Of a stretch of 64,000 nt of DNA, positions 31,601 to 46,080 are shown one piece after another (within the stretch, counting starts at the first letter, position 1; every line of letters starts with the position of its first letter). This stretch comes from Acidobacteriota bacterium. Lineage in GTDB: Bacteria; Acidobacteriota; Blastocatellia; RBC074. The translations under genes and the position numbers were made by a program. The notes beneath the pieces were generated by a model. The model was not told the origin of the DNA and searched no databases. It saw nothing but the letters and a program-made list of their open reading frames with translations. Location: contig JBDTUN010000921.1 of NCBI GenBank assembly GCA_040007715.1, positions 4,761-68,760 on the forward strand, in the 5' to 3' direction.

Positions 31601-33560
31601 CCTTTCGGCGCTGGCCGCCGAACACCGCGAAGCCGTTTGGCAGTACCTCGCGCTCACCGCCCGGGCAGGGAGCGTGGAGGGCGCAGCGGCGCTCGTGCGG
31701 ACGCTGGAATTGTTGCAGCCGCCGGTCGCGGAAATCACGGATGATCTGAAGGTCTCACTAAACGCTTTCCGGCAATCGCTGGCGGCCTCGCGCTCCGTCC
31801 CCGCGCAACGGATTGGGTGCGCGTTGTGGTGGCATTTGGTGCGGTTGGGCGTTTGCGACGCGCCTTCACTCGATGAGATCAAGCGGCAACTGAAGGAGAA
31901 GTCCGATGTCACCACCCGGGCGGAACTCGTCAATCTGCTCGCTCAGGCCTCGGTCAGAAGCCGCTTTGATGCCGATCAGGTCGCCGCGATTCTGTTGCCG
32001 CTCGCCGGGTTGAAAGACCAAAAACTCGGCAAAACGGCGTTGACGGCGCTGGTCAACTTGATCGTCGAACTGCCTGTCGAAGCGCCTGAATTTATTCTTG
32101 ATGCGCTCGATGTGGCTTTGGCCGCGCCGACAGACTCCGGCCGCCCGACGCTTTTTGGCCGAGTGATAGAGTTTTTGTCGTTGCGTAACGTCGCCCTGGC
32201 CACGGAAATACTGAAGCGGATTCTGCTCGCGCCAGCCATCACCGAGTTGGGCAAGCAAGCGCAGAAGGACATCGCTAACCGGCTGCGCTCACCGGCCCGC
32301 CAACTCGTTCGTGTGATGACGCAGGAACAGCGCAATCAACTGCTCGCTTTGACGACGGCCATTGATCCGCTGCTTCAGCGCGTGATTGTGGAGGCTGTTT
32401 GCCACGAGGCGTTTATACCATCCATTGAGGTGCTCGATCAGTTATTGGCATCTACTTCTGGCGCCTCTGGCGCTGATGGTCAGGGGCTTGCTGATCGCAC
32501 GGTTGAATTGATCAGGCGACAGAAATACGCCAGGGAGCGTTCTGCCGGCGGCGAAACATGGGGGGAGTTGCCAAAGTTGTATGATCTGGTGAAGCAGGGA
32601 ACGAACTTTTCTGAACAGGAGACCGAACGAGTGAACATAAAACAAATTGATAGCGTGAGCGCCAGCAGCCAGGCTCAGTTGGCCAGACCGAGGCTCGGCA
32701 TCGTCATCGCTTTGGGTGAGGAGTTTGCTGAACTGTTTCGCGAAATCGAAGGATCATTCTTTCGCGACCGCGACCCTGACACGGGCCGGAATTACTACTT
32801 CTTTGATCGCGCTTCGTCAGCAACAGGGAAGACGTACCGCAATGTCGCCACCTTTGTAGGCGGCATGGGGCCTACGTCAGCGGCCCTAGTCTCACAGGCG
32901 ATGATGATTCGATACGCCCCACAGACAATGGTCATGCTGGGCATTGCGGGCGGCATAGATAGCGACGTGCGCATCGGCGACATCATCATTCCAACAGTCG
33001 TGGACGCTTACCTGGAAAATTCCAAAGCCGAGAAGTCGGCGGGCGGCGACGGATTTGAATTCATCCTCGGCGGCGAACCATTCCGCCCTAGCAATACCTG
33101 GATTCGGCTGGTTGAGCATTTGCCGTTTGCGCACAGAGATATTTTTGCCCGCTGGCAGGAAGAGTGCGCGGACGATTGGCTGACGTTGATGCCTGACGCG
33201 ACCGTGCGCGAGGAGTTGGTCGCTAAGTCTTGCGTGCGCGAAAAAGCCGGGTTGGTGACTGGCCATCTAGCCTCCGGGCCAACCGTCGGCGCGACTGAAA
33301 AATTCTCCGAGTGGCTCAAGACTCATCGAGACCGCAAGTATTTGGGCCTGGAAATGGAAGCGGCTGGATTGATGGCGGCGGCGAACGAGTATTTGCACGC
33401 CAAAGACACTTTGGTCGTCCGCGCGGTGTCCGACTTCGGCGACGAACGAAAGAAAGAAATGGAGCAAAAGTCGAAAGGGGTGCTCCGCCGCTATGCGGTT
33501 CGCAACGCCATCAGGCTGCTCTGGCTACTGGTCGAGGCAAACGACGCTATAAACGAGTGA
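25671..33560 (+). CDS. Giant (2629 aa) STAND NTPase: NACHT module 1, HEAT-like repeats, NACHT-like module 2, long helical repeat region, C-terminal PNP/MTAN-family nucleoside phosphorylase-like domain
   Basis: Module 1: GPPGCGKTT (aa ~241), LLMLDGWDEV, IIITSRP, NPFLLSLLC, FHFLHTTFQEYLAA. Module 2: VTGDAGHGKTSLL (aa ~1212), LVLLDTVDAL, LIAACRPQE, VNPLTLRMLF, LHFFHQTFFEHSAA. C-terminus (aa ~2341-2629): GIVIALGEEF..., MVMLGIAGGID and LGLEMEAAGL, matching the PNP_UDP_1 / MTA nucleosidase family. Confidence 0.8.
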   Translation: MSDAINNDPDFLWQTLLILRALVRTKDDSSIRLEGDRLYLASEELRLPADALSERELKDRIRELARRAGLPDVSVGSLAEIWRTELTNRALSRSELLERGEWAILKRNPKETDIVRRWRDELLARMVNQLADLNAVERFEPAATSQDRERKLELGPLIEDWPRRILEDDYWKYAEAPLPEMKPLALDDVWVDLFLSDPLEATEEHEVAAYQDWHDERQRWRTEPAAFVLERVYGATALVGPPGCGKTTLLKWFARQLIARPQGRFLLPLYVPLRKYAQARYASGAGSHAPASLSLLEFALRQCGIKQPAQLALWMPTIGYLTGADRTNVLLMLDGWDEVPAEHREPMLAEIDDLAHAFAIIITSRPSGFPRLLPVSHIYEIASLSPDTSERLVRRWFEASGAPEQAEAVLRNLDAHPDLRRLVRNPFLLSLLCGICRHADYLATSSTMSGAVSRTALYRQAIRLIIAHHNRHFPRLITALEERKVARLALWLQADAPNAPRYVFDRADAQQCLNETTTLENVRSSRLLSQLHLDRESFHFLHTTFQEYLAARGLLSEPPATAESRLRERVYDLGWQEILCFAAGESADEKIKNILWQQLSALARQPDRFGLVFVRLARFVREAGAGDGGKSLLGVDVRDELWRAIEQGIEINVFVDAHAELDSNDLLRRIEEQLGRNSDERIRVRLIRAMGRFRSPETARALVDRVLHGDDNAAAIAAYASHRVLDADGFRTLRAAITDEELSEQQRIRALRTLGNARDSLIVPALAETAWRPLDALSIEAIKALGRIGDAAASANLTELLSETNDVARQEFIITALGQARDPIARDRLIEEITFRWPDDPLLPGALEALIEKPFYHGAETVAGLLRCERPEVRAAAAQALADSARTTYGHELARVAQEDGVKAVRMAALQSLIKQGGPQDILKLSRLAGDEARDMEERAEALATALQICARLTPDALMLRMLNHSALDALQAPSGLLAMSAASHAHVLGDQIAERLLEICGDDQASDSVREEACRSIARILRNHEHVLKDRAADLLLDLVRREPATTADEEEPNLDSRQRLAQAAAVALTEINVARLLGEPGTTCANALAAFAVRTGCLVFPDRIINAGGQTIAIQPQRAASTEQTLNSEADPTNRADHTSQANHECLRRVRRWSRIAADDAQQVIQAAGSDHHAEVVLGPELYVERDIEQEICDRLEKSGRRGQSASVLVTGDAGHGKTSLLWRLHHTYGAHQALEGAGNWEPWFIKSTLLVMTPRAGEATGGLYLDDLLAAARLVLAEGRKPLVLLDTVDALLHGEEAERERVVEALLTLLEEGCSLIAACRPQEAVLLGPLRRGSLRLDEYRGRELTEAIDKHVAHFYAYADLHTREEHRAHINSVVARGLPLREVCVNPLTLRMLFVLYAPDAVPAEVNVFDLYDKFWRDRVVTDRRAGSPLPPSGAANLEKAAALVALVMLAEGQPELPAQRVRDGVTNFGGDAAEIEQLISRGVLHGQGGATLHFFHQTFFEHSAARAILDHFGGGGLTMLQRRLASRPHDMFLSPVYEQALLLAENMPAAVRLCADDLLGNLFRADSAIERSSAAYIYAHRKSVPTAIARQFHALLKAADTALVRRFLAVAPNLPIQRWADLFHELDLIWERGKWEEHAHVLDLLERLAVRDDQRVLDYLSRHEVLDYILKLPFHFQGATRLLRVYAALAIHQPVRSWELVGRLYRFGLKEQSQDLQISAINALAEYATLYGPETIASRFEEMARSTAGTPPRFNEVFPQAIGRLWAIEWRARNVALKTIVEQASGPQADQVQTRARLYGLAALLVDSGNVADAAYLFESFRREADVHRQWLWARMCLPGLLGSEVEDNELSPAVRHIRSEIIAIFGDRIRQPKSSAEAEAEAAPDSQRIFLMACEAVEKANFSPARLAALLDFPEAEAPEVWLDKELFAELLPDAYVGGHYGAVEAMRLLTNAPERFPEAPVVPIALRLSALAAEHREAVWQYLALTARAGSVEGAAALVRTLELLQPPVAEITDDLKVSLNAFRQSLAASRSVPAQRIGCALWWHLVRLGVCDAPSLDEIKRQLKEKSDVTTRAELVNLLAQASVRSRFDADQVAAILLPLAGLKDQKLGKTALTALVNLIVELPVEAPEFILDALDVALAAPTDSGRPTLFGRVIEFLSLRNVALATEILKRILLAPAITELGKQAQKDIANRLRSPARQLVRVMTQEQRNQLLALTTAIDPLLQRVIVEAVCHEAFIPSIEVLDQLLASTSGASGADGQGLADRTVELIRRQKYARERSAGGETWGELPKLYDLVKQGTNFSEQETERVNIKQIDSVSASSQAQLARPRLGIVIALGEEFAELFREIEGSFFRDRDPDTGRNYYFFDRASSATGKTYRNVATFVGGMGPTSAALVSQAMMIRYAPQTMVMLGIAGGIDSDVRIGDIIIPTVVDAYLENSKAEKSAGGDGFEFILGGEPFRPSNTWIRLVEHLPFAHRDIFARWQEECADDWLTLMPDATVREELVAKSCVREKAGLVTGHLASGPTVGATEKFSEWLKTHRDRKYLGLEMEAAGLMAAANEYLHAKDTLVVRAVSDFGDERKKEMEQKSKGVLRRYAVRNAIRLLWLLVEANDAINE

Positions 33561-33783
33561 CACGGCAGCAGCTCTCTGCGGAAAGAACCTATGCCTTACA
33601 TATTTGTCCGAAGCTCTGGTCAGCGTTGAGTGCTACAAAGGACAGGAACAGAAAGTTGCGCGGCAGGGAAACCACCTAGGCTAGCGATGCTTTGCCTGCC
33701 TGCAATCTGATGTGGCGCACGAAAGCCAGCCAGTGAAGTCGTTGATCTCAGGGCACACGCTTATTTCGGGAAGGGAGATAGCT

Positions 33784-35073
33784 ATGATACCAATTCAAAT
33801 TCTGCTTGCCACCGACGAAGTCAGCATCATTCCCGATTACGCAAAACAGCTTTTTGAGAGTCCAGACTGGTTCGGCGATGACCCTGCGCCGGTTACCCGG
33901 GGGCTGACTGGCGAATTGTCCGCGCATGGTTTTCAAGTTGGCTTCACCAAACTGGATGAGCTAGCCGAATCGCTCGAACTGCGGGCGACTCTCGGCTGCG
34001 TCTACCATGTGCTATGCATCCTGACCATCCGGGTCTGGAAGGTTGGTCGCACGCTTCGCACAGCCATCGAATCAGTGCGCGCCTTGCCTGATGAAGTGCT
34101 ACTTACGAATGGTCTGCGTCTCAAAACGCTGCCGGTTGTCATCGCCAACCCTGCCAATCTGCTGGGCAACGCTAAAAAATATGACGATGATTTAGAATGG
34201 GTCGCCAATGCCCGCTGGGTTGGTGCCCAGCAAGGTGATGAAGTGGTGGCCGAGACGCTGATCCGCAGCCTGGCGGATTGGCAATCAGAAATGGTGGCGG
34301 AACTCGAATACGTGGGTTGTGGCGTCAGCATGAGCGAGACGGGAAGTCTCGAAGTCTTTCCCTATTTCGAGCGGAATTCCCTGGAGAGTCTGTTCTTCGG
34401 CCCGCGCGCTACCATCGCTGGGCTGCGTGAAACAGGTTTTATTCGGCTTCCAAAAGAGGCGGTCGTCATTGCTGATTCGCTCTATGCATTGGAGCAAGCG
34501 TTGAATGAGGTCAGAACTCTGCCACCCAAGGAGCAGGAACCGCGGCTACAAAAGTGCCTTGAAGAAAATCCGGTTTTGATCACGCAGGGAATGTTTGGAA
34601 CTCCCTGGTCACGACGCACACTCAAGCATCCAGACCCGCTTCAGCAGGCAATTCAGCCGGATTTCGTCATGACGCCTCATGCAGATTGGGATCAAGTCCT
34701 GCGCCCTCGCGTGCTTGAAATCAAGACTTCTGAAAAAATAGCCGTTCGCCGAAAGCAGCTAACGAAGGATTTGCTTGATGCTTTGGAACAACTCATGGGG
34801 CGTTATGCGCGTTTCTTTGCGGATGAAAGGACACGTGAGGTACAGACCAAAATTTATGGCCGCCCGCTCGAACGGCCAAACTACGCACTGCTCATTGACA
34901 GACATATCTCGCCGGAAGACAAACAGATTTGGGAAGAGAAACGAGGGCAGAGCGTATGGAAGGACGTGTCGCTGGTTACCTACAATGATCTCCTGGATTT
35001 CGCCGCACAGCGCGTGAGTTTGGTCAACCAAGTGAATTATCGCCTACATCAGAAACTAGCCGGTAAGGATTAG
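33784..35073 (+). CDS. PD-(D/E)xK nuclease-like protein (possibly Shedu/DUF4263-like)
   Basis: Start ATG 33784 with GGAGAT SD. C-terminal half carries PDFVMT...(15 aa)...LEIKT (PD...ExK). The Shedu family assignment is a guess from size and layout. Confidence 0.4.
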   Translation: MIPIQILLATDEVSIIPDYAKQLFESPDWFGDDPAPVTRGLTGELSAHGFQVGFTKLDELAESLELRATLGCVYHVLCILTIRVWKVGRTLRTAIESVRALPDEVLLTNGLRLKTLPVVIANPANLLGNAKKYDDDLEWVANARWVGAQQGDEVVAETLIRSLADWQSEMVAELEYVGCGVSMSETGSLEVFPYFERNSLESLFFGPRATIAGLRETGFIRLPKEAVVIADSLYALEQALNEVRTLPPKEQEPRLQKCLEENPVLITQGMFGTPWSRRTLKHPDPLQQAIQPDFVMTPHADWDQVLRPRVLEIKTSEKIAVRRKQLTKDLLDALEQLMGRYARFFADERTREVQTKIYGRPLERPNYALLIDRHISPEDKQIWEEKRGQSVWKDVSLVTYNDLLDFAAQRVSLVNQVNYRLHQKLAGKD

Positions 35074-35140: not shown

Positions 35141-37750
35141 TCAAGTGGACTGTATTGGAGACAGATCAACCGCTGTCACATAACTGCTTTTGAACTTCTT
35201 CGTCACATCACAAGCGAGTGTCAATTTGTCGCCCTCGACGTTGAGAACGACGGTGAGGAAAGGCGCCGCGACTTTCGACAGAAAAACCAGATCACCGCGC
35301 ACCGGTTCACGCGGCAAGGTGGGAGCGTTGCGCAAATCGCCGCTGAGGAGAGCGAGATGCGCGCCCCATTGCAATTGCGCCTTGAGCCACTCTTCCGATT
35401 TCCGGTTTGATATTGACGATAAAAGCGCTGTGCGCGTTCTGCTCACAGCCTCTTCATCACTCGAAGTGTCTGCGGTCAGGTACATCAGTTGTTCGAGGCC
35501 ATAGAGGTTTTCCCATAAGACATCCGGTTCGTCGTCGTCCAACACTGTTCTTACATCCAATTGACAATCCCAAGCCAACCACAACAGCAACCCGCGCACA
35601 GCCGATGCTTCAATGCAGTGTTCGTCACCAGCCTCCTGCAACGCTGCCTTCATCACTCCGCAATCTCGTGCATACAAATAACGACAGGCATTCAGAAAGA
35701 ACTCCCATTGAGCGTCGAGCGGCACGATGCGTTCCCCACGGGGAACCCATGCGGTGTAGTTAACACGGTTAGTAAGATGCTGGGTGAGACCGAGCACTGC
35801 GGCGAGATGCAGTAGCGCGCGCAGCGGATTGCTCTGGCCTTCAGCCGCAAGCGCGAGTTGGCCTGTCATACGCCTAAACAGGCTTCTAAACCGGCGGTGG
35901 CAAGTCTTCAAGAGCGCCGCGCCATCAATTTCGACGGACAGATCAGGCTCTTCACTTTCATCTTCCTTCAATTCCTCTTCACTACGTTTGATAATCAGGT
36001 ACCCCACCAAAGGGGAGGCAAGTCCCTGTCCGAGGCGGTGGATCAGAACGCTGAGGATGAGCGCAAGGTCGCCTGTTGCAAGCGGCCGCCATCTACGTGT
36101 GCCCGTTTTGGCCTGCCCCAGTCTTATGCTGTCTGCCGCCAGAGATGTTATTTCCGAGTCTCCATCGTTCTGGTTATTGCCGGAAGTAAATGAAGCTGAC
36201 CGCTCAAATAAGCCATCTACAGTATCGTCGGCGATCACTTTCTCAATCAGCTTCAGCAATTCAATGGGAGCTTCGCTGTCGGGCGAAGCAAGCGCGCGTT
36301 TGAACTCTCGCTGCAAATCGGTTTGTGCGGCATCGGCCAGATCCGCCGTGTGATGCACGATGGCGTAGGCTAAATCGCAGCCGTCAGTTTGCAGTTCGAG
36401 CAGCCGGGTAAATGACAGCGCGGCAGGATCGTGGACTTTAAGGCGGAGGATTTCACCATCGAAACTAAATGCTGAACTATCACCCAAATTCGTGCCGTCG
36501 GCATCAAGCAGAGTAGCGCGGCTAAAGCCCATCGGCCCATTGCTGAAACCGTAAATCTCAAAACCGTCTTCTACTTTGCAGGCAATCAATAGCGAACAAG
36601 CGATACGCTCCTCGTCGGTTGAAAGAGGTTTGTTCTGACTTACCTTCTCCCAGTCTGGCGCGGTGAGAGGCGGTTGTGTGGCCAGAGCCGACAGCCCCAA
36701 CGCCCGTCCGAGCGAGTCCTTTCTTCCGGCGCGGCGCAGAATGACTGCCTCGGCATTTCGTTTTGTAGGCCCTGCGAGCCAAGCCGGCGGCGTCGGGTTC
36801 GCGCTGCCGGTGATGAGCAGTTCTTCGCCCTGCTCGGTTTCAAAGAGGATCGCTTTAGCGTGCAGATAACCACTCCCATCGTGTAGCAAGCTTGCATCCA
36901 CAAACTTTGCTTGCGGGACGATCTGGCAGGCATCGGCTGGGATGATGACTTTTTCAGGCTCGATACCGACGACCAGATTCTTGGGTGAGAAATCTTCGCC
37001 GAGCCGCTTGATGAACATTAGGCTCTGATCGAAGAAGGGGCCGACCGCAACAATCCGCTTTACTCTGGCGGGCACACGTTCGCGCACCAACTCCCACAAA
37101 GGAGGCCCGGTTGGCTCTGACCCGAAGAAGTGGCTTTCCTTGCCATCTACAATTGGCTCCTGCGGCTCTTGTAACCAGGGTGCGAAGCGCGCCATTGCGT
37201 TGACCGTTTCCTGCAAAGGCTCCGGCAAAGTGGCGGCCCAGGCTTTGATGAAGTTTAGAGCAGCATGAAAAGTTGGCAGGAGCGCCCGGTCTTTGTTGCC
37301 CGAATACTCAAAGCAGTTGGTCAATTCCCGGTTGAAACTGAAGCCTGAGAGCGTGAGGTTGTGGCTGCCGACTAGCAGCAAACCATGCTGGCGACCGGCA
37401 AGCAGGACAAGCTTGGGGTGAAAGGCTCCGCCGCATTTGATTGGCAGCAGGGCGTAGCTTTTCCCAGCCAATCGCGGGCGTAAGTCTGTTCGCGCCAGCG
37501 CCTGCCCGCATTGCCCGGCATCCATCAGCACAACATTGTGCTGGCAGCCAGCCGCAGTCAGGTGGCGGAGTACCACCTCTTCGTAAAAAGGGAAATACGC
37601 ATTGAAGGTGGTGACGAGCGAGGCCGCATACTCGCGCCGCCGGATAGCTTCAAAAATCGAAAGCTCTTCAGGCACGGCAGTACTCCAGTAACTCATGCCC
37701 GGTCTGAGTGAGTCGTCTGCGGCCAGTGGTTTCATCAAACGCCAGTGCAT
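35141..37750 (-). CDS. Phospholipase D (PLD/HKD) superfamily protein, two HKD-like motifs in the N-terminal ~350 aa plus a ~500-aa uncharacterised C-terminal region
   Basis: HPKLVLLAG...LLLVGSHNLT and HAKAILFETEQGEELLITGSANPT (HxK...GSxN twice). The first motif lacks the canonical Asp. 869 aa; the 5' end overlaps the upstream gene. Confidence 0.6.
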   Translation of the reverse strand: MHWRLMKPLAADDSLRPGMSYWSTAVPEELSIFEAIRRREYAASLVTTFNAYFPFYEEVVLRHLTAAGCQHNVVLMDAGQCGQALARTDLRPRLAGKSYALLPIKCGGAFHPKLVLLAGRQHGLLLVGSHNLTLSGFSFNRELTNCFEYSGNKDRALLPTFHAALNFIKAWAATLPEPLQETVNAMARFAPWLQEPQEPIVDGKESHFFGSEPTGPPLWELVRERVPARVKRIVAVGPFFDQSLMFIKRLGEDFSPKNLVVGIEPEKVIIPADACQIVPQAKFVDASLLHDGSGYLHAKAILFETEQGEELLITGSANPTPPAWLAGPTKRNAEAVILRRAGRKDSLGRALGLSALATQPPLTAPDWEKVSQNKPLSTDEERIACSLLIACKVEDGFEIYGFSNGPMGFSRATLLDADGTNLGDSSAFSFDGEILRLKVHDPAALSFTRLLELQTDGCDLAYAIVHHTADLADAAQTDLQREFKRALASPDSEAPIELLKLIEKVIADDTVDGLFERSASFTSGNNQNDGDSEITSLAADSIRLGQAKTGTRRWRPLATGDLALILSVLIHRLGQGLASPLVGYLIIKRSEEELKEDESEEPDLSVEIDGAALLKTCHRRFRSLFRRMTGQLALAAEGQSNPLRALLHLAAVLGLTQHLTNRVNYTAWVPRGERIVPLDAQWEFFLNACRYLYARDCGVMKAALQEAGDEHCIEASAVRGLLLWLAWDCQLDVRTVLDDDEPDVLWENLYGLEQLMYLTADTSSDEEAVSRTRTALLSSISNRKSEEWLKAQLQWGAHLALLSGDLRNAPTLPREPVRGDLVFLSKVAAPFLTVVLNVEGDKLTLACDVTKKFKSSYVTAVDLSPIQST

Positions 37751-39317
37751 CCAGGTCGTGCAGGATTTGGAGTGCTTGCGTAATGCGTGGGCTGGTGAAG
37801 GCCGGTTGGATATGGCCGACCAAACGCAATCCCTCGTCTGTCGGCTTGATGCGGAAGGTGTCTCGTCCCTCAGCTTGCAATTTGCGAAGTGCGACTCGCA
37901 GATGTACGTCCAGTCCCCAGTGCGTTACGAGCCAGCCGAGCAGTTCGCGCAGCGGCAGCTCGTTCCACTTCTGTCGAGCGTTTGCACGCAGGGAAGTGAG
38001 GTTAATCGGGTAGCTATCAAGCTGCGCGACATTGGAGAAGAGGTCGTACTCTGCGCGCTCGTCACGCGCGGCCAGCGCCAGCAGAATGTCCAGCGCCACT
38101 CGCAGCGCTCCCGCCGCAGAAGCATCTTCAAGCGGACGATAGATGATCTTCTCCAGCTTCCAGCCCAGCATCAGTTCGTGTGCTTCATTCTCCCAGTCGC
38201 CAATTTCAGGCAGCGATGAGCGTACGCGGTTGACGGCTGCGGAAAAGGTTGCGTGTCCCTCACCTTTGAGTATCTGCTCGGCGAATGAAGAGATAAACCA
38301 CTGCCGTAGAGCCTCGCGATCACGCAGCAACCCACCGTTCTTCTCAAGCTCAATCAAGGCTGCCCAGAAGATTCCCTGAACGGCGATTGAAAGCAGTTCG
38401 TTGCATTGGTACACGGCCCAGCGTTGCCGCGCCGCTTCTAGCGTGGGCGTCAACTCCCAAGGCTGTTTGCCGGGTAGATGTCCTGAGTAGACGCAGGCTC
38501 TGAAGTCGCCCACATGCCAATTTTGATACTCTGGTTCTTCATTCTCAAAGTGCGCAGCCAGATCAAGCAACAATCCCAACGTCGCGCGCCTGTGCGTTCC
38601 TTCAACTTCGTAGAAGATGTCCCCGCGATTGAAGAACAGGTTGAGCAGCAAGGCGTGCTCTGCGGGATTGGCGGGCAAGTGGCAAGGGCAGAAGCGCTGC
38701 AAACGTTCGAGCGTCTCGTTGCTGATCTCATCCGCTTCAAGCGCGTCAAAAAAGTCATCGCGCTCGACGCCCGCATCAAAAGCTTCTGCCAACGGTACTC
38801 CGCGTTGTGGCGTGTATCTGACGACGGCGCGCGGGCTGCCAGCGAGGATGCCCAGTTGATAGAACGTTCCCAGATAATACTGACCCAGTCCGCCGAGCCT
38901 GTGCTTGAAGTAACGCTGTGGTGTGTCGTCGGTTGAGGTATACGTAGAAAGCTTTTGCGGTTTCCCATCCTGAATCAGGCCGAGCACGTTTAGCAGCGTG
39001 TTGCGCCCGACCAGCGCGGCACCGTGTCCTCTTTCATCTTCATCGGTATGGCTGCCGTGCCAGGCACCAATAAGTGTGAACAGGCAGTCGGCTCGCCGCA
39101 CCAGTTGCACGAAGTTCTCCATCGTCAATGGCGCGCATCGCTGTTCAATCGCCCATACCAGCCACGGGTAGAAAGAATAACACCGCGCCCGCTCAGTCAC
39201 ATTGGTGATGCCGGGCAGCAACTGCGCGTAGATATTTTCGCATGGCGCGCGGGCGGCGAGATGGTCTCGGCCAGCGATCTCTTGAGCGGGTTTGACCCAG
39301 GCGGTGATGACAGACAT
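37668..39317 (-). CDS. Hypothetical protein (549 aa), upstream partner of the PLD-family gene (overlapping ORFs)
   Basis: Long ORF with coding-like composition and no NTPase or nuclease motif that I can see. Its stop overlaps the PLD gene start region. Confidence 0.45.
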   Translation of the reverse strand: MSVITAWVKPAQEIAGRDHLAARAPCENIYAQLLPGITNVTERARCYSFYPWLVWAIEQRCAPLTMENFVQLVRRADCLFTLIGAWHGSHTDEDERGHGAALVGRNTLLNVLGLIQDGKPQKLSTYTSTDDTPQRYFKHRLGGLGQYYLGTFYQLGILAGSPRAVVRYTPQRGVPLAEAFDAGVERDDFFDALEADEISNETLERLQRFCPCHLPANPAEHALLLNLFFNRGDIFYEVEGTHRRATLGLLLDLAAHFENEEPEYQNWHVGDFRACVYSGHLPGKQPWELTPTLEAARQRWAVYQCNELLSIAVQGIFWAALIELEKNGGLLRDREALRQWFISSFAEQILKGEGHATFSAAVNRVRSSLPEIGDWENEAHELMLGWKLEKIIYRPLEDASAAGALRVALDILLALAARDERAEYDLFSNVAQLDSYPINLTSLRANARQKWNELPLRELLGWLVTHWGLDVHLRVALRKLQAEGRDTFRIKPTDEGLRLVGHIQPAFTSPRITQALQILHDLDALAFDETTGRRRLTQTGHELLEYCRA

Positions 39318-39663
39318 TGCTTCGGCTCTGAAGTAAGGTTAGCGGGGCAGCAAATTTTAGGTCGGCTTATCACGACTGACCAGCTACAGGATGAGCGCAG
39401 TTTTCTCAGTTCTGTACAAGTCCCGGAATACTCTCTCGCAAAACTTCGGGGGCACCGTAGTTTGGAAGCTCGGGGAAAGGAAACGCGTAGAGTAACCAGT
39501 CTCAAATTCCTTCGAATTCGGCGTGCCTGAATTTTAGTGTCCGGCAAATTTCCGTGACTGTCCGCAAAGTTTGATCGGATACGCCTTCTGGGATTTTTAC
39601 CTCAATTTCCAGCGTGACTTTGACCCTTGTGCCGCGCCAACTCTTCTAGGCGAACCTGATTAT

Positions 39664-40090
39664 TCATCCTTTCGTATCATTCGGGAGTCGGTAGGCGTGA
39701 ACGCCGGAGCTTTGAACTGATACTAACAATTTGGCATCGTATAAAACCTTGGTGTCGGCACTTTCACAGTCAATCCAGAAGCCCTGCCCAGAATATAAGC
39801 TGATCCGCTTCGCGGGCGAAAGTCCATCTTTTATGCCTTTCGTCTGGGCGAAGGGGAGCAATACTTTGCGTCCGATAACATTGATTACGTAATTTGTCCT
39901 TCAGTTTTACCGGTTGTGGCAGCCTACTTTGGTTGAAACGCTCGTATTTGAAGTTCAGCACAGTCTCACCACATCCGCACGATGAGCCGCTCTCATTGTC
40001 GAAGAAACAGAAGAGGGTTTCACCAGGGATAGTCCCGTAATTTTCAAGGGCCTTGCCAGCAATTCGAGCATGAAAGGATATTCTCACCAT
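39664..40090 (-). pseudogene. Frameshifted hypothetical gene in a low-GC patch (two overlapping minus-strand ORFs 39770-40090 and 39664-39861 in different frames)
   Basis: Each ORF has a plausible protein-like half (…GTIPGETLFCFFDNESGSSCGCGETVLNFKYERF… and …[37 protein letters not shown]…). Each runs on into the other frame as nonsense. Local GC is visibly lower than the flanks. Confidence 0.3.
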
Positions 40091-40100
40091 CAGGGGTTAG

Positions 40101-40610
40101 CTACGAAAAGGCAAATACTAGAATGTGCTGAAGGCTTTTGTCGGCAAGAAGCTTTTCCAGAGATCCAATGCGGCTTTCGGGCGTGTCAATTAGAACAATC
40201 CAGGTTACCCACTCCCGCGAGTACGCGGCTGTCTGGCCTATCAGCCTATCCCTCTCGACCTTTATGAGATTGACCTTGACTTCAATGGCAAGCAAATCAT
40301 CAATTAGAATATCGGGCTTGCCCTCTCTCGTACTTGGAAACATCTCAATCCCCAAATCGGTTTCTTTGGCAAGATATTCGAAGAGATCGTTAACGTACTC
40401 ATCTTCGGCTTCAAAGTGATCCGGCTCCCAGTCATCCAGGATGGGCGCGACCTCGGTGCAAACTTCTTCCACGCCGTCAGGGTCATCCCGTTCCGCCCGG
40501 CTCTTCTTCGCCTCGTCGTGCTGATTTTTTACCCACCACGCGCCGGTGAACAACCCGCTGGCGGCCCACAAAAGATGATCAAGTTTTATCTTTGAGTCGT
40601 TCATTCGCAA
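40101..40610 (-). CDS. Small PD-(D/E)xK (restriction-endonuclease-like) protein
   Basis: EDEYVNDLFEYL...GKPDILIDDLLAIEVKVNL...QTAAY, i.e. the E / PD / ExK / QxxxY motifs. 169 aa with an N-terminal hydrophobic segment. Confidence 0.45.
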   Translation of the reverse strand: MRMNDSKIKLDHLLWAASGLFTGAWWVKNQHDEAKKSRAERDDPDGVEEVCTEVAPILDDWEPDHFEAEDEYVNDLFEYLAKETDLGIEMFPSTREGKPDILIDDLLAIEVKVNLIKVERDRLIGQTAAYSREWVTWIVLIDTPESRIGSLEKLLADKSLQHILVFAFS

Positions 40611-40803: not shown

Positions 40804-41712
40804 TCACCTCACGCCTAAACCACCGATGACCTTACGGAGTTCGGTACAGACGGGGGCGATGGCTGCGGACAGATTGCTGTCCCCGCTGTAAACATATGTC
40901 AGGGGCGTCACTCCAAGTATGTCGGTAGGGATTTTTACATCGGTATTCTGCTCCTTCACGATGAAAGTGCGACTCCGTTCAAGTCTGCCCATAAATAATC
41001 CAAGTTCAAACACCGTATTGTCGCGCGGGGCGTTGTATTCATTCTCTCGGCTAAAGACCTTATCGTCCGGGCTAAACACGAACACTGCGAAATCCGCTTC
41101 GTTTACCATATTCAAAAGCGTTTCGACGGGGATGCTTGACGGGCCAAACACGCCGTCCGTCCAGACGACGGCTTCGACGTTGTCGTATTTGAGTCCGAGT
41201 TGGATCTCCTGAGCTATCGCCCGGCTCTCGACGGAACATCCAAGGAATAGAAGAGGCTTCGTGTTCGGGTAGTTCAAGAGGGTGGATCTTTGGCGCAACC
41301 GCTCGGCGACAATCTGGGCAATAACGCGCCAGACTTGCGGATAATCTTGCGCCACCTGATGAAAGTCAGGCTCAGATACTTTCAGCGCCACTACCGGTGA
41401 GCGGGCGGTCAGACTAGCCGATCTGGGTTCAGTGGGGCTGAGGAGCGACATCTCCCCGATTGACTCGCACGCAACACGAACTGCGACCTGGCGGCCGTTG
41501 ACAAGCACATTAACTTCGCCGACCAGAATAAAGTAGACGTCGTTATCTTCCGCGCCTTGGGCCATGATCGCGTCGCCGGTCTCGAATGAAACTAATTGCC
41601 CCACTTCAGCGAGTCGGCTTGCAAGCGCCTCGTTGTGTTCTACAAGCGGGCAATTCTGTAGTGCGGTGATCAGACGCCGCTGTCCATCGGTTCCTTCAAA
41701 TCGTTTCTTCAT
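40804..41712 (-). CDS. cNMP-binding domain fused to a TIR-like (CAP12/Pycsar-effector-type, PF10137-like) domain: Pycsar effector-like protein
   Basis: N-terminal CAP/cNMP-binding fold (FETGDAIMAQGAEDNDVYFILVGEV...IGEMSLL...RSASLTA). The C-terminal ~150 aa read LLFLGCSVES...DFAVFVFSPDD...RDNTVFELGLFMGRL, the pattern of the predicted nucleotide-binding TIR-like family. Confidence 0.6.
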   Translation of the reverse strand: MKKRFEGTDGQRRLITALQNCPLVEHNEALASRLAEVGQLVSFETGDAIMAQGAEDNDVYFILVGEVNVLVNGRQVAVRVACESIGEMSLLSPTEPRSASLTARSPVVALKVSEPDFHQVAQDYPQVWRVIAQIVAERLRQRSTLLNYPNTKPLLFLGCSVESRAIAQEIQLGLKYDNVEAVVWTDGVFGPSSIPVETLLNMVNEADFAVFVFSPDDKVFSRENEYNAPRDNTVFELGLFMGRLERSRTFIVKEQNTDVKIPTDILGVTPLTYVYSGDSNLSAAIAPVCTELRKVIGGLGVR

Positions 41713-41789
41713 AGTTTGTCAGGCATTCTCCTTCCTACTTTTGGAGAGGGGAATGGCCACTGTGCCTATTGTAGTGTTTTTCAATTAAA

Positions 41790-42509
41790 TTAAGTGGGTA
41801 AACGGCGGCTGGAAACAAACGGGTTGTGTTTCCCGAGGTGCTTAATGAGTCTGACCAGACGCTTTGCGTGGCAATGCTTGAACTTCTTGCCACTCTTACA
41901 CGGGCAGCCCGCAGCCGGTTCTATCTCCTCTCTGCCGCTCAGCAGACCCACGAAGTTGCTGACGAGCGCGGCATCTCCCCCAAGCGCGTCCTGGACGAAC
42001 TCGATATACCCGACAATACCATGCCCCCGCTCCCCCCACGCCCAGCGCTGGTCAGGAGACGCTTCATAGATCAGTTGGCGCTCATAGAATGTTGAAACAT
42101 GGTCTAAAAAACCATGAAGGGCCATCGCTTCGCGAGCCTTCCACTGGGATTCGACCGGCAGCCACAGGCAACACCCGCCGTCCGAAAAAAAATGCCGGTC
42201 AGCGATGTGCGGAAATAGATTGCCGGTTTCGAAAGCCATCGGCTCCATCTCAGGGTAGCTATCCGGAAATACAACGCGAGTTCTCACCCGCGTCGGTATT
42301 CCGCATTCCGCACGCAGGGTGATGGTGCCGTCTAGAAAGACTTTCCTATCCGCATAATTCAGTCCGTACTTCAAGCCCGGATAGTCGCGGCGAATAAGAG
42401 CACGGTCTTGAGCGAGGCGCTCATCGCCGTCGTCTTGCTCAAACCAGCGTCGCTTCCCATCATCCTTCGGCGTATGACCGACCAGGTATAATAGTTCTCG
42501 CACTCTCAC
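41790..42509 (-). CDS. E2 (UBC)-like fold protein with C-terminal SEC-C zinc motif
   Basis: FPDSYPEMEPMAF...FPHIADRHFFSDGGCCLWLPVESQW resembles the E2 core (YPxxPP...HPN...GxICL...W). C-terminal CPCKSGKKFKHCH is a SEC-C motif. It sits between the cyclase and the effector. Confidence 0.45.
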   Translation of the reverse strand: MRVRELLYLVGHTPKDDGKRRWFEQDDGDERLAQDRALIRRDYPGLKYGLNYADRKVFLDGTITLRAECGIPTRVRTRVVFPDSYPEMEPMAFETGNLFPHIADRHFFSDGGCCLWLPVESQWKAREAMALHGFLDHVSTFYERQLIYEASPDQRWAWGERGHGIVGYIEFVQDALGGDAALVSNFVGLLSGREEIEPAAGCPCKSGKKFKHCHAKRLVRLIKHLGKHNPFVSSRRLPT

Positions 42510-44001
42510 GCTCTCTTTCGGTAATAGTCACACCAGAATTGCTGGAAGTGATAAATGCCGGTGCCCCCGCTGCGGCCGTAGCTTTCTCCGCCCGCTCTAC
42601 CTTGTCCGCAGTAAGGTCGTTTGCGACGTAACACCCGGTGCCGTTGTCATACTTGAAGTGTTTGCTCAGGCGCTCCGGCAGCGCATCGTAAATGCGCTTT
42701 GAAATGCCGATCTGACCGCCCGAGCAATTCTCTTCAAATTTCGCGGCGCTTTCTACGGGAGCGCCGAGGCAGATGCGGTCGCGGTGGGCGCGGGTGCCGA
42801 GCTTCGAGACAAGCGTCGTATCAATGTCAACGCCGACGGCCAAGCGCAGTTCTTCGGCTTCGGGAAGCTTCTCCTTGATCGTCTTCTCCATGGAGGATTG
42901 CAGCCCGACTGCGGCGTTCACCGCCTCGGTTGCAATGTCGGCCTCCTCGTTTTTCGGCAGGTGATACAGCCCCTGTACGCGGTCACCCTGAAACTGAACG
43001 CGCAGGCCGTTATAGTCGCTGGCCACCACCCTCGCCATCTCCTTGCGCACGGCGTGGAGTACGCGCAATGCGTTACGCTTGTCCTCCTCCGTCTCGGCGC
43101 GATCAATGTATGCAGTGAAGCCGGTGATATCGCCAAAGATTGAGGCTGCCAACACTCGTTTGTTATTCCAGATGCTGAGCAAGTCAAGGTCAATCAACTC
43201 ATTGGCCGAACTGTAATCAATATCTTTGAGTGGATGGTCGCGCTTATCTTGATCAACGCGCGCGCAGCTCTTTCCCCGGTCCCAGCCGATGCCGTATTCC
43301 TCAAGCAACTCATCCAACCGCTTCTGCGGCACCGCATTGATCTGGTAGACGTCTCCTTCGTCGGTCTCCGCGCAGAGTTCACGGAGATCGTCTGGGAGTG
43401 CATCGTAAACGGCCTTTGCGAGGCGCAGTCGGCCTGCCGAACTTATAATCTTGGCGGCGTAGTTGGCACAGGCACCTAGGAATAACAACTCGCGGTCATT
43501 ACGTGTGCCATTGCGGGTGCCGATTGAATCGCCAACGTCTGCGCCGCCAGCAACTGAGAAATTGTCCAAGAGCGGATACGCAGGATTGAATACCGAGGCG
43601 ACAAAATCCTTTAGCACTAACTGGAGTAGAAGAGCTTTCGTCGCCAGCTTCTTGGTTTTGTCGATCGGGCGGTAAAAGATAGCGTGCAACTTTGGTCCCT
43701 GGAAATGAATTCGAAGGCCGTCGAAGATGTCTTCGACGATGCGCGAAACCTCTCGCTGGTAAACATGGACTGCCTGGATGAATCGCTTGTAATCAGTCGC
43801 ATCGGCGATGCTTTCGCTCGCGATAGGGCTAAAGTTTGTAACATAGACATAGACGTGCGCAGCGTGAATCTCGCGGCAGCATGTCTCCGTCAACAGATTA
43901 TTGAGATCGGCCTCGCGAACGAGTTTTTCAACTTCAATCTCACCCATATTGTCGAGATGTTTGCCAATACGTTCCAGGCTGTCATTATAATTCCAGCTCA
44001 T
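42460..44001 (-). CDS. Class III nucleotidyl cyclase with tandem cyclase-homology domains (degenerate N-terminal plus catalytic C-terminal): PycC-like
   Basis: C-terminal domain: AASIFGDITGFT (metal-binding Asp motif), VQFQGDRVQGLY, LAVGVDIDTTLVSKLG, DRICLGAPVESAAKFE. N-terminal domain is degenerate (HVYVYVTNFSPI...ELLFLGACANYAAKI). Confidence 0.7.
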   Translation of the reverse strand: MSWNYNDSLERIGKHLDNMGEIEVEKLVREADLNNLLTETCCREIHAAHVYVYVTNFSPIASESIADATDYKRFIQAVHVYQREVSRIVEDIFDGLRIHFQGPKLHAIFYRPIDKTKKLATKALLLQLVLKDFVASVFNPAYPLLDNFSVAGGADVGDSIGTRNGTRNDRELLFLGACANYAAKIISSAGRLRLAKAVYDALPDDLRELCAETDEGDVYQINAVPQKRLDELLEEYGIGWDRGKSCARVDQDKRDHPLKDIDYSSANELIDLDLLSIWNNKRVLAASIFGDITGFTAYIDRAETEEDKRNALRVLHAVRKEMARVVASDYNGLRVQFQGDRVQGLYHLPKNEEADIATEAVNAAVGLQSSMEKTIKEKLPEAEELRLAVGVDIDTTLVSKLGTRAHRDRICLGAPVESAAKFEENCSGGQIGISKRIYDALPERLSKHFKYDNGTGCYVANDLTADKVERAEKATAAAGAPAFITSSNSGVTITERERESARTIIPGRSYAEG

Positions 44002-44123: not shown

Positions 44124-45572
44124 TTAAGCAGCCAAAGAATAATCACTAAACCTGCCGCGTCCGCCGCGCGACTGCCATAACTGGGATTGTGATACCGCGC
44201 AGCCACGACAGTGGCGGAGGGCTGCCCGCTTATTGGCGATCACGGCAAGCAAACCATAGCGTAAATCTGTGCCGACCTCATTTGGCAGCGCGGCTAATGA
44301 GCTTCCCTCAAGCTTGAGATACTCAGCCAGCAATAAGGAAGCTGCGCCGGCGGAAAGGAATGGCAGCGCGCCCTGGACAGGCGGCTTCGATTCTTCAACC
44401 GCGATATTGCCTTCCGCGCAAGGGCCGCGAAATTGGGCTGCTGGGCGAGGCAGACGGCAGAGCGTGCAGTCTTCGCGACGTGGAATATGACGCCCAGCCC
44501 CCATTCCCCAGCCGCTGGTCGTGGTCGCTTGTAAAACGATGGGCGGAAGCAGAAAAGGCACTTCTGCCCAGGCCGCATCTTCGTTCGTTAAACTGATCCA
44601 TACATCGAAGGGGTGTTCCGCCATTCGCCCCGAATGCTCGCGCCACGCGCCGACGATGGCTTGTGTATAGATGTTTTGATGAGCCAGATAGCTGTGCGCG
44701 ATGGCGGTTTTATCAGAAGCCGCAAGCGCGTCCTTGAATGTAAACATCGGTGACCTGTTCAGGTTGGAAGTCTCAACCTTGTCTCGATCAAGCAGGGTCA
44801 ACGAACCGCGTAGCGGCATTAGATCAGCCAAGTAGAGAAATGCCGAGCCGACTGCCCCAACGCCGGCCAGCAATGTTTCTCCGAGATCGAGGTGCGGCGG
44901 TGGCGGCGGCGCCTCGGCTTCTACGAATGGTTCAGTCAACAACCGATGCGACCACGTAGACCAGGAAAACTCCGGCAGCCATTGTGCGCCAGGATGTCCA
45001 ATTGCTCTCTTGAAGAGATCAGCCGCACCGAGCGAAGCTGCCAACCCGGCAGCCGCCATTGTTGCCGGTAAATCGAACTCGCCGTGGAAGCCTTGCCCCC
45101 TGCGACCCAATGCCGACCAGCCGGCAGCGTTGATGACGAAATCTTCGGGCTGTAAACCATGAGCTTGCTGGAAAGCGCCGATCAAAAGTCTCAGTCTCGG
45201 CCTTCCGTTACTGTGCGCGATCTCTTTGACCTGGAAATCTCCGAAAGGATCAGCCGTTTGCATTTCATCTTTGATTCTTTCGGCGAGAAGGTGGTAACGC
45301 CCGCGCCGGAATTGCGGGCAGAGCGCGACTTCAGGCACGATCAAACGCACATTGCGCGCCCATCGCGCCGTTAGGTTCGCGGCCAACAGAGCCATCGCTT
45401 GAACCGTCGGTTGCCCGGCACTGGAAGGATCAATCCGAATCTCGATTTCGCGTTGTGCGTAATCGGCCAGATTGGCAACTTCGAGTAGCGTGCGGTTATC
45501 ACGCTCCCTATAGAATGCCTCGGCCGAGGGCCACCGCTGTAAGGCTGCTTGCTTCATTTCTTTATTTCTCAT
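44124..45572 (-). CDS. E1-like (ThiF/MoeB-family) ubiquitin-like activating enzyme (BilD-like)
   Basis: LLAGVGAVGSAFLYLADL...LTLLDRDKVETSNLNRS is the Rossmann/ThiF signature. A CTLC pair lies downstream. 482 aa. Confidence 0.75.
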   Translation of the reverse strand: MRNKEMKQAALQRWPSAEAFYRERDNRTLLEVANLADYAQREIEIRIDPSSAGQPTVQAMALLAANLTARWARNVRLIVPEVALCPQFRRGRYHLLAERIKDEMQTADPFGDFQVKEIAHSNGRPRLRLLIGAFQQAHGLQPEDFVINAAGWSALGRRGQGFHGEFDLPATMAAAGLAASLGAADLFKRAIGHPGAQWLPEFSWSTWSHRLLTEPFVEAEAPPPPPHLDLGETLLAGVGAVGSAFLYLADLMPLRGSLTLLDRDKVETSNLNRSPMFTFKDALAASDKTAIAHSYLAHQNIYTQAIVGAWREHSGRMAEHPFDVWISLTNEDAAWAEVPFLLPPIVLQATTTSGWGMGAGRHIPRREDCTLCRLPRPAAQFRGPCAEGNIAVEESKPPVQGALPFLSAGAASLLLAEYLKLEGSSLAALPNEVGTDLRYGLLAVIANKRAALRHCRGCAVSQSQLWQSRGGRGRFSDYSLAA

Positions 45573-45579
45573 CCAGCTT

Positions 45580-46080
45580 TCATTCCCTAAAATCTTTTTC
45601 GCCGGGAATCACGACGATGTGCCGGGGCAACTCCGCCAATCCGACCACATGGAACTGGCCGTTGATATAACGGTGGATGCCGCAGCGATTGATATTGATG
45701 CCGCGCCGCCCGAAGTACGGCACGACCACCGACAGCGCGCCCTCGTGCCTGGCAAAGTTATGCTCGTCATCGAAGCGCGAATGTCTGACTTTGTGGCGCG
45801 GGTGCGAATGGGCCTGCCCGATCAAAACCAGCGGTGTGCCGACCATTGCCGCCAGCACCTGCGCATTCGCTTCCGGTGTGGTCAGGACGCAGCCGTAGCG
45901 AGTATCCGCATCCGGCACGGCCAGCGTGGTGATGATTGCTTTCGTTCCCGCTTCTATGCCGAGCCAATAAACGACACCTTCAGCTTCGCGTTCGGCTGCG
46001 AAGCTTGCTAATAGGTCAGCAGTCCGGATTAACAGCGAATCGCTGATCATCACTACCGGAAATTGATCATCCGACCGCAT
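45580..46080 (-). CDS. JAB/MPN (JAMM) metalloprotease (BilC/Cap3-like deconjugating peptidase)
   Basis: HSHPRHKVRHSRFD fits the JAMM motif HxH-x7-S-x2-D exactly. 166 aa. Confidence 0.75.
   Translation of the reverse strand: MRSDDQFPVVMISDSLLIRTADLLASFAAEREAEGVVYWLGIEAGTKAIITTLAVPDADTRYGCVLTTPEANAQVLAAMVGTPLVLIGQAHSHPRHKVRHSRFDDEHNFARHEGALSVVVPYFGRRGININRCGIHRYINGQFHVVGLAELPRHIVVIPGEKDFRE

Follow-up and report, generated by a model that had tools for sequence, protein, structure and literature searches.

Introduction

The Azaca defense system consists of ZacA, a DUF6361 protein, ZacB, a member of the phospholipase D (PLD) superfamily, and ZacC, a superfamily 2 (SF2) helicase, and confers more than 10^6-fold protection against T4 (bioRxiv 10.1101/2025.07.10.664194). 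Purified ZacABC degrades T4 DNA in a reaction that requires all three proteins and the Walker A motif of ZacC; mutations in the nuclease active site abolish cleavage in the systems tested, and BmAzaca preferentially degrades T4 DNA that carries glucosylated hydroxymethylcytosine (glucosyl-hmC) (bioRxiv 10.1101/2025.07.10.664194). Modification dependence has also been described for PLD nucleases fused to variable sensor domains, namely SauUSI and the END nucleases (PMC12191111). Here, we report a computational analysis of two overlapping genes in a 64,000-nucleotide stretch of DNA from a member of the Acidobacteriota (GenBank assembly GCA_040007715.1, contig JBDTUN010000921.1, positions 4,761 to 68,760; hereafter, the window), the first encoding a protein of no described family (the partner) and the second a PLD-family protein.

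We consider it probable, although well short of certain, that the pair is a self-contained, horizontally mobile defense module that targets phages or other incoming DNA and is composed of a PLD effector and a helical partner. An earlier note, prepared from the nucleotide sequence of the window, had proposed an uncharacterized PLD-nuclease defense pair at this locus, and the obligate pairing, the mobility, and the defense or restriction-modification (R-M) contexts described below support that proposal, the function being predicted from genomic context and remote homology. The literature searched contains no description of this two-gene family; papers outside it or newer defense databases may hold one.

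Results

An overlapping gene pair

The two genes and their junction are located as follows.

37668..39317, minus strand: partner gene, an open reading frame (ORF) of 549 aa; a distant ZacA relative, mostly all-alpha, with a small C-terminal alpha/beta domain
35141..37675, minus strand: PLD-family gene, 844 aa from the GTG at 37675 (maximal ORF 35141..37750, from the ATG at 37750, 869 aa)
37668..37686, minus strand: putative translational-coupling junction, with GGAG at 37683-37686, GTG at 37673-37675, and the TGA stop of the partner gene at 37668-37670

Both ORFs listed in the earlier note, of 869 and 549 aa, are present on the minus strand, and because the two proteins have hundreds of length-conserved homologs, these ORFs are genes rather than chance reading frames. 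The length given there for the PLD protein and the overlap of the two ORFs have to be revised slightly. Read from the sequence, the coding strand of the junction consists of GGAG, a 7-nt spacer, and GTG CCT GA. The likely start of the PLD gene is the GTG at 37675, yielding 844 rather than 869 aa, because GGAG lies 7 nt upstream, a gene call in public data (P0001, 844 aa) is 100% identical to the PLD protein, and the alignment of 60 PLD homologs begins at this position. With this start, the PLD gene and the end of the partner gene overlap by 8 nt (GTGCCTGA), and the 83-nt overlap applies only to the maximal ORF. An exact-sequence look-up of the 869-aa form returned no match; gene calls on deposit begin at shorter starts. 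In homologous loci, the overlap between the partner and PLD genes is likewise small, at 8 or 11 nt, and, on the strength of the junction, we take the two genes to be translationally coupled.

The PLD protein

The predicted domain organization of the PLD protein, with residues numbered in the 844-aa form, is as follows.

36626..37675, minus strand: two-lobed PLD catalytic domain, residues 1-350; invariant residues, predicted local distance difference test (pLDDT) score mostly >90, Foldseek matches to Tdp1
37325-37420, minus strand: PLD half-site 1, H86-K88...G103-S104-x-N106, then N115-x-E117
36749-36862, minus strand: PLD half-site 2, H272-K274...G290-S291-x-N293, then N307-x-E309
36353..36598, minus strand: all-beta domain after the PLD domain, residues ~360-441; AlphaFold2 (AF2) strands at 361-441, pLDDT 85-95, no family match
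35933..36226, minus strand: acidic low-confidence linker, residues ~484-581; pLDDT <50 at residues 484-533 and 553-581
35168..35923, minus strand: C-terminal helical domain (residues 585-778) and small beta domain (residues 796-836); AF2 pLDDT ~90

Membership in the PLD superfamily is apparent from the two HxK...N half-sites, from an AF2 domain that matches PLD folds, and from PLDc_2, the only Pfam family found in this protein, which scores above its gathering cut-off (E = 4.5e-7; 30.2 bits against 27). Motif 1 (HPKLVLLAGRQHGLLLVGSHN, residues 86-106, HPK...GSHN) and motif 2 (HAKAILFETEQGEELLITGSAN, residues 272-293, HAK...GSAN) have H-to-N spacings of 20 and 21 residues, respectively. In the alignment of the 60 homologs, which span 30-80% identity, the H, K, G, S, and N residues of both motifs and the N-x-E that follows each are invariant. 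The earlier note had correctly recorded that motif 1 lacks the canonical Asp, the position being occupied by Ala in the window protein and by V, L, A, or I, never Asp, in the homologs; it did not flag motif 2, yet the Asp is absent there as well, with Glu at this position in 53 of the 60 homologs and Asp in 3. Because the double HKN site is invariant, the protein is predicted to be an active phosphodiesterase. The classic Asp-less "HKN" member of the superfamily is Tdp1, which acts on DNA 3' adducts and has a similar H-to-N spacing.

Among the PADLOC models, the PLD protein matches ZacB best (E = 1.2e-13), followed by PDC-M27B (6.5e-9), PbeA (5.6e-5), DpdK (0.0023), and DrmC (0.0077). The ZacB match (48.9 bits) is confined to the PLD core, with residues 107-349 aligned to positions 107-343 of the 586-position profile. 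When the AF2 model (mean pLDDT 82.9) was compared with the Protein Data Bank (PDB) using Foldseek, ranks 1-49 were all Tdp1 (best E = 1.9e-9, probability 1.00), with a template modeling (TM) score of ~0.5 (target-normalized) and 10-15% identity in the Foldseek alignments, and rank 50 was polyphosphate kinase.

The ~500 aa that follow the PLD domain, already described as lacking a recognizable domain, have no Pfam, PADLOC, or PDB sequence match, and sequence-profile searches of the PDB with the PLD and partner families returned noise only (E >= 0.046). Homology to a protein encoded on a Myroides plasmid reaches through the beta domain (hhalign to residue ~495, probability 99.6). The linker (residues 481-585) has a pI of 4.35, with 20 D+E against 10 K+R. 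Mean pairwise identity is 29% in the region after residue ~355, compared with 43% in the PLD domain and 45% in the partner; within the system, the C-terminal region of the PLD protein evolves fastest, and conservation is highest in the partner. No Walker A motif is conserved in either protein, no RecA-like domain appears in the AF2 secondary structure of either, and the pair is probably ATP-independent. Neither protein contains a convincing membrane segment, an N-terminal signal, or a transmembrane pattern.

The partner protein

Two regions of the partner resemble described families.

39081..39230, minus strand: N-terminal signature, residues ~30-79 (YAQLLPGITNVTERARCYSFYPW), the sole stretch matching ZacA/DUF6361
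37671..37865, minus strand: C-terminal small alpha/beta domain, residues ~485-549, with weak winged-helix similarity

The 549-aa partner, described earlier as devoid of NTPase and nuclease motifs, is matched by no model of Pfam, NCBIfam, PADLOC, or PHROGs, and it is not recognizable as a known metabolic enzyme. Hidden Markov model (HMM) searches, which the earlier note had suggested for both proteins, lead to ZacB for the PLD protein and to ZacA for the partner family, although not for the window partner itself, which shows nothing at E <= 1 against ZacA or DUF6361. When scanned individually, 43 of the 57 partner family members match the PADLOC ZacA model (best E = 4.9e-6), and in all ten members inspected the match covers ~45 residues (residues ~31-79 against positions 45-92 of the 396-position profile). 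The Pfam DUF6361 model, which is the ZacA domain, is matched by one member of the 57 (E = 0.015). Within the ZacA-matching stretch lies the most conserved motif of the family, LLPGITNVTxRARYYSFYPW, and residues Y30, G36, R43, Y50, W52, and R74 of the signature are invariant; hhalign finds the same motif in the partners encoded on Streptomyces, Rhizobium, and Haloferax plasmids.

The AF2 model of the partner is confident (pLDDT 91.1, pTM 0.90) and almost wholly helical. Foldseek searches of the PDB and BFVD gave best E values of 0.13 and 0.046, respectively, with TM ~0.1, and the hits, which were membrane transporters and long helical proteins of other kinds, were judged meaningless at this TM score. 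The C-terminal domain comprises two strands and two helices (E490-499, H512-521, E525-536, H538-548). The winged-helix family HA2_N of Pfam is matched by 20 of the 57 members (best E = 0.0011; the window partner, E = 0.17 at residues 515-545), and HTH_45 by 3 of the 57. An exhaustive profile search retrieved 2181 partner-family representatives (50% clustering) at E <= 1e-3 and 552 at E <= 1e-30, and the homolog search with the partner alignment recovered the close family only and did not reach bona fide ZacA. Pfam and PADLOC scans of both proteins and of 57 partner homologs detected no SRA, EVE/PUA, iEndoIII, or other modified-base reader.

Obligate pairing and phyletic distribution

A survey that included one genome per GTDB species yielded 55 loci from about ten phyla, with representatives in Acidobacteriota, Desulfobacterota, Myxococcota, Alpha-, Beta-, and Gammaproteobacteria, Planctomycetota, Spirochaetota, Fibrobacterota, and Eisenbacteria. 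HMM searches of six-frame ORFs placed the partner gene immediately 5' of the PLD gene, which it overlaps and with which it shares the strand, in 54 of the 55 loci; in the 55th, the contig begins inside the PLD gene. Clustering of all ORFs of at least 100 aa from these loci found only the partner and the PLD protein to be universal. A conserved third gene was rejected, given that the next real family is present in 11 loci. Among the 41 intact loci, the pairwise identities of the partner and the PLD protein are correlated at r = 0.98 (Mantel 0/999).

Distant relatives (25-40% identity) encoded on plasmids of Undibacterium, Polaromonas, Myroides, Roseomonas, Streptomyces, and the archaeon Haloferax retain the layout of a ~500-640-aa protein and a ~730-890-aa protein, so that the plasmid hosts of the pair include Betaproteobacteria, Bacteroidota, Alphaproteobacteria, Actinomycetota, and a haloarchaeon. 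With hhalign, homology of the partner was confirmed for Streptomyces and is weak for Haloferax (probability 20.7), whose PLD protein matches clearly. On a plasmid of Rhizobium sp. CB3060 (locus L072, 6061-10079), the order is reversed, the PLD gene being followed by a homolog of the partner (hhalign probability 94, E = 1.3e-7 against the partner family). The gene pair proposed earlier is thus borne out by the co-occurrence of its homologs and survives a swap of gene order, and these observations show the pairing to be obligate.

A PLD-first distant relative is also found on a Novosphingobium plasmid (locus L070, 5950-9800), where the second gene is annotated as an ATPase; the second genes of the two reversed-order loci encode ~500-555 aa. 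One or both genes of the pair are split into at least two ORFs in eight loci (L009, L014, L043, L051, L052, L054, L056, and L059), all derived from metagenome-assembled genomes, and pseudogenization or assembly frameshifts could explain these cases. The search for relatives among 2.9 million viral contigs yielded a single one, on which ground a phage-borne gene was rejected.

Genomic contexts of the pair

The flanks of the pair range from defense islands, type I R-M operons, and DISARM-like methylase/helicase operons to housekeeping genes. It follows Zorya ZorABCD in Polaromonas and QatABCD in Roseomonas, and in Steroidobacter it stands alone amid sugar-utilization genes (glycoside hydrolase, TonB receptor). 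In seven loci, mostly myxobacterial (L016, L020, L022, L023, L026, L040, and L054), the pair follows hsdR-hsdM-hsdS, with a gap of ~20 nt after hsdS in most of them and a larger one in L016. On the Myroides odoratimimus plasmid pFM-G13 (locus L062, 7938-12055), it is inserted between hsdS and hsdR. These arrangements suggest that the pair is co-transcribed with the R-M genes in the type I R-M operon loci. In another locus (L044), Mrr and AAA_15 genes separate the type I R-M genes from the pair.

An SNF2 helicase (DrmD/DpdE-like) and a DrmMI-like methyltransferase are encoded upstream of the pair in 8 of the 55 loci, and the genes located between them and the pair are mixed (HNH_2, YhcG-PDDEXK, DUF2326, HEPN/RES, and Fic). 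In an acidobacterial contig (locus L068, 1-8008), the pair comprises the last two genes of an operon of four overlapping genes, the first of which encodes at least 1792 aa with DEAD, YjiV_N, Helicase_C, and MZB (DUF1998) domains and the second an unannotated protein of 401 aa. This operon recalls DrmA/DrmB of DISARM or DruE of Druantia. No co-directional gene lies within 200 nt upstream of the pair in 26 of 54 loci. From these contexts, we read the pair as a self-contained mobile cassette, which inserts into defense islands and into hitch-hiker slots of R-M operons and is not permanently tied to any particular larger system.

The neighborhood in the window

In the window, the pair is located between a Shedu-like gene and a Pycsar system, within a dense defense island; the island location asserted in the earlier note is substantiated by NACHT/STAND-PNP, Shedu-like, Pycsar, E2, Bil-like E1/JAB, and GajB/UvrD-like neighbors.

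25671-33560, plus strand: giant protein of 2629 aa, with NACHT, HEAT repeats, a second STAND-type NTPase region (AAA_16/nSTAND5), and a C-terminal PNP_UDP_1 nucleoside-phosphorylase domain
33712-35073, plus strand: Shedu-like gene, 453 aa, of weak similarity only; SduA_C E = 5e-4 (below gathering), PADLOC SduA 1.1e-6
39770-40090 and 40101-40610, minus strand: small ORFs of 106 aa and 169 aa, no family match
40804-41712, minus strand: PycTIR of the Pycsar system, which spans 40804-44001
41790-42509, minus strand: E2-like gene with a SEC-C motif, between the PycC cyclase and the PycTIR effector
42460-44001, minus strand: PycC cyclase of the Pycsar system
44124-46855, minus strand: Bil-like ubiquitin-type module, with E1 (BilD-like, ThiF), JAB (BilC-like), and two small ORFs
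within 46945-51391, minus strand: UvrD/GajB-like helicase, 1158 aa; PADLOC RTasHel and GajB ~1e-60

The Shedu-like gene is convergent with the PLD gene, at a distance of 67 nt. The intergenic region 5' of the partner gene is 452 nt long (within 39318-40610). A sigma-70-like site in it (39354-39382) is no better than chance, the promoter and terminator scan having returned hits at the level of shuffled sequence, and no Rfam or tRNA match was obtained in the window. The ORFs at 39770-40090 and 40101-40610 were rejected as parts of the system, given that they match no family and are absent from the locus of the closest relative. GC content around the pair is 0.53-0.57, against 0.58-0.62 in most 2-kb bins from ~10 to 32 kb.

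Several features of the neighbors are recorded here in their own right. The closest relative of the pair (locus L067) adjoins a 3064-aa version of the 2629-aa giant protein, with an additional Metallophos domain and in a different orientation. The E2-like gene of the window overlaps the end of the cyclase gene by no more than 50 nt, and L068 has a comparable E2-CBASS/SEC-C gene in the vicinity of SAVED/HNH genes. The small ORFs of the Bil-like module (152 aa and 106 aa) match no family and may be its E2 and Ubl components. An ORF of 328 aa overlaps the gene of the 1158-aa helicase just upstream of it, and the genes at 46945-51391 may constitute a Gabija-like or other helicase-nuclease system.

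Discussion

A possible mechanism

In the proposed mechanism, the 844-aa PLD protein would be the effector, a single-chain, two-lobed, Asp-less HKN phosphodiesterase that, by analogy with the superfamily, would cut phosphodiester bonds of nucleic acids via a covalent phospho-histidine, with no requirement for metal or ATP. Since the protein is homologous to ZacB and resembles Tdp1 in fold, its substrate is expected to be a nucleic acid rather than a lipid. Candidate substrates would include modified phage DNA, DNA ends or covalent protein-DNA adducts, and any DNA after activation. Translational coupling would supply the partner in fixed proportion to the PLD protein, and coupling, strict co-occurrence, and co-evolution together suggest that the partner binds it, most likely acting as a sensor or regulator. 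The C-terminal half of the PLD protein, which evolves fast, probably serves in target recognition or autoinhibition, and a regulatory or sensing partner combined with a specificity or autoinhibitory C-terminus would fit the difference in conservation between the two (45% versus 29% identity). We infer, rather than observe, DNA as the substrate, complex formation, and the role of the partner as a sensor. The pair might act alone or, in some genomes, share a transcript with R-M or DISARM-like modules, to which it would add a further layer of nuclease activity.

Several observations weigh against a self-contained defense module. A co-directional gene is present within 200 nt upstream of the pair in 28 of the 54 loci, and R-M- or DISARM-like genes are located upstream in 15 of the 55; because of these two counts, dependence on neighbors is conceivable. 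Since Azaca requires three proteins and a Walker A motif, a version devoid of the helicase may be inactive on its own or may operate in another way. The link to ZacA is weak, being limited to ~45 residues with a best E of 4.9e-6 and absent from the window partner at E <= 1. Numerous polar and aromatic positions of the partner are invariant (H87, H98, C210, C212, H380, and E381, among others), and this protein could be an enzyme instead of a sensor. The likeness of the modeled PLD domain to Tdp1 could signify end-processing or adduct removal as opposed to endonucleolytic killing, and the assignment to defense itself comes only from context and remote homology.

Alternative explanations

These observations can be accommodated in other ways, of which modification-dependent restriction is best regarded as a special case of the self-contained module. 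Under this hypothesis, which is possible albeit rather doubtful, the pair would be a two-subunit, type IV-like restriction enzyme, in which the partner or the C-terminal domains of the PLD protein read modified phage bases and the PLD domain cuts. The preference of BmAzaca for glucosyl-hmC T4 DNA is compatible with such an activity, as is the modification dependence of SauUSI and END, which combine PLD with variable sensor domains (PMC12191111). The frequent location of the pair beside Mrr_cat/HNH_2 genes and inside type I R-M operons also agrees with it, and fast evolution is what would be expected of a specificity module in the C-terminal region. However, the Pfam and PADLOC scans revealed none of the known modified-base readers, and SauUSI, BfiI, and END dimerize with one HKD motif per chain, whereas the PLD protein of the window is single-chain and two-lobed. 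We rate as unlikely the hypothesis that the pair is a plug-in nuclease, in a role like that of DrmC or ZacAB, that needs a translocase/methylase system encoded nearby or elsewhere, for which type I R-M, DrmD/DrmMI, the DEAD-DUF1998 helicase, and a ZacC-like helicase are the candidate hosts. The seven loci in which the pair directly follows hsdR-hsdM-hsdS across a ~20-nt gap speak for such dependence, as do its insertion between hsdS and hsdR on the Myroides plasmid, its position downstream of the SNF2 (DrmD/DpdE-like) and DrmMI-like genes in eight loci, the operon overlap with the 1792-aa DEAD/Helicase_C/MZB protein in L068, and the need for the ZacC ATPase in Azaca. Nevertheless, nearly half of the loci (26/54) lack a co-directional gene in the 200 nt upstream, the copy in the window is preceded by a 452-nt intergenic region of its own and is accompanied by no R-M genes or helicase, and the copy in Steroidobacter is surrounded by sugar-utilization genes. 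Moreover, the associated systems are heterogeneous, and the HNH_2, Mrr, Fic, HEPN/RES, and YhcG genes that intervene in the DISARM-like and L044 loci form a pattern typical of hitch-hiking in defense islands; the mirror-tree co-evolution covers the two proteins of the pair only and no neighbor.

Two further alternatives concern the chemistry of the PLD protein. That it is a true Tdp1-like remover of protein-DNA or 3'-blocking adducts, serving in repair or in attack on protein-primed or relaxase-linked DNA, we deem improbable. All of the first 49 Foldseek ranks are Tdp1, and both half-sites are of the HKN type, with no Asp and with H-to-N spacings of 20 and 21; but Tdp1 may rank first simply because no other single-chain, two-lobed PLD is as well sampled in the PDB, the Pfam Tdp1 family is not matched at E <= 1, every significant HMM match is to a defense PLD, and a patchy, mobile, plasmid-borne distribution is atypical of a repair gene. 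Least credible, and hardly tenable in our estimation, is a lipid substrate, whether for a membrane-damaging abortive-infection effector or for a housekeeping enzyme resembling cardiolipin synthase, the second of which the earlier note had itself raised. PLDc_2 is a generic PLD-superfamily domain, and two hydrophobic 19-mers are borderline (maximum Kyte-Doolittle 1.65 and 1.73), but these segments are located inside confidently folded globular domains, and no N-terminal signal or transmembrane pattern accompanies them. The canonical Asp of lipid PLDs is missing, the 49 top structural matches are the DNA enzyme Tdp1, followed by polyphosphate kinase at rank 50, synteny is not conserved, and the pair is carried by plasmids in many taxa. 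A cardiolipin-synthase or other housekeeping lipid PLD was rejected for the same lack of the Asp and of a convincing transmembrane segment and for flanks that differ in every locus examined, the best matches being defense PLDs and Tdp1.

The self-contained module can also be given an evolutionary form, to which we attach tentative and limited credence: the pair would be the minimal, ancestral version of a large nuclease module found in both Bacteria and Archaea, in which a partner of new fold, from the ZacA/DUF6361 superfamily, detects infection and licenses a Tdp1-type PLD to degrade invading DNA with no ATPase, and to which Azaca and some R-M or DISARM-like operons later added a translocase. 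In a bolder sub-reading, the Tdp1-like chemistry would target covalent protein-DNA intermediates of phages or conjugative plasmids.

Implications

If the pair protects alone, it would add to the known systems one that is widespread and that Pfam, NCBIfam, and PADLOC v2 do not represent by a model of its own, the partner family extending to about 2,200 representatives (50% clustering) in about ten bacterial phyla and to a haloarchaeal plasmid. As a natural helicase-less relative, it would permit a direct comparison bearing on the ZacA-type role and on the contribution of the helicase in Azaca. The partner fold is confidently predicted and has no solved or viral structural neighbor, and structure determination or dissection of this protein would give the DUF6361-like superfamily a function. 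A single-chain, Asp-less PLD in defense would extend the known PLD designs beyond the dimeric, one-HKD enzymes BfiI, SauUSI, END, and DrmC.

Comparison with known defense systems

As the earlier note had anticipated, the pair matches neither DISARM nor Mokosh, the core helicases and methylase of which are absent beside it in the window; the closest system is Azaca instead. No DrmA, DrmB, or methylase gene is located near the window pair, and the DrmC HMM is matched only at E = 0.0077; the DrmD/DrmMI-like genes of 8/55 loci and the DEAD-MZB helicase of L068 are not universal. No Mko model is among the PADLOC matches, and no AAA_11/AAA_12 helicase adjoins the window pair. The helicase and PLD genes found in locus L004 belong to a separate system encoded on the opposite strand. 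PDC-M27 (A, the PLD protein B, and the SNF2-like helicase C) resembles the pair in that PDC-M27B is the second-best match of the PLD protein (6.5e-9), but the partner family does not match PDC-M27A, and no PDC-M27C-type helicase is encoded beside the window pair.

With BfiI, SauUSI, END, DrmC, MkoB/MkoC, and DpdK, the pair shares PLD chemistry in defense, and with the one-HKD enzymes among PLD defense proteins it also shares a modular layout of an N-terminal nuclease and variable C-terminal regions (PMC12191111). Those proteins carry one HKD motif per chain and need to dimerize, and the one-HKD enzymes are fused to or partnered with helicases, methylases, or known readers, all of which the window pair lacks. 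Tdp1 shares the single-chain, two-lobed fold and the His, Lys, and Asn residues, with no Asp, in both half-sites. In contrast to Tdp1, the PLD protein of the window does not match Pfam Tyr-DNA_phospho at E <= 1 and is 10-15% identical to Tdp1, has ~500 additional C-terminal residues and an obligate partner gene, and belongs to a family with a prokaryotic, mobile, defense-island distribution.

The likeness to Azaca involves both gene families, weakly so in the case of the partner. The best PADLOC match of the PLD protein is ZacB, the gene of the uncharacterized protein precedes the PLD gene as in Azaca, 43 of the 57 partner family members match ZacA over the same N-terminal motif, and both systems are found in defense-island contexts. 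Unlike in Azaca, no helicase gene flanks the window pair and no helicase family is conserved beside the pair in the 55 loci; the partner has 549 aa against a profile of ~396 positions, and the PLD protein 844 against ~586; and the C-terminal ~500 aa of the PLD protein and most of the partner bear no similarity to the Azaca models. The pair is not filed as Azaca because it lacks ZacC, matches ZacA only marginally, and encodes much longer proteins. Azaca is nevertheless its closest known relative, because the families of two adjacent genes each match best one of two adjacent Azaca components, in the same order, and sequence comparison accordingly places the pair as an Azaca-related, helicase-less two-gene variant, distantly related to the ZacA-ZacB core: not categorically new, with a structurally novel partner, and worth experimental testing.

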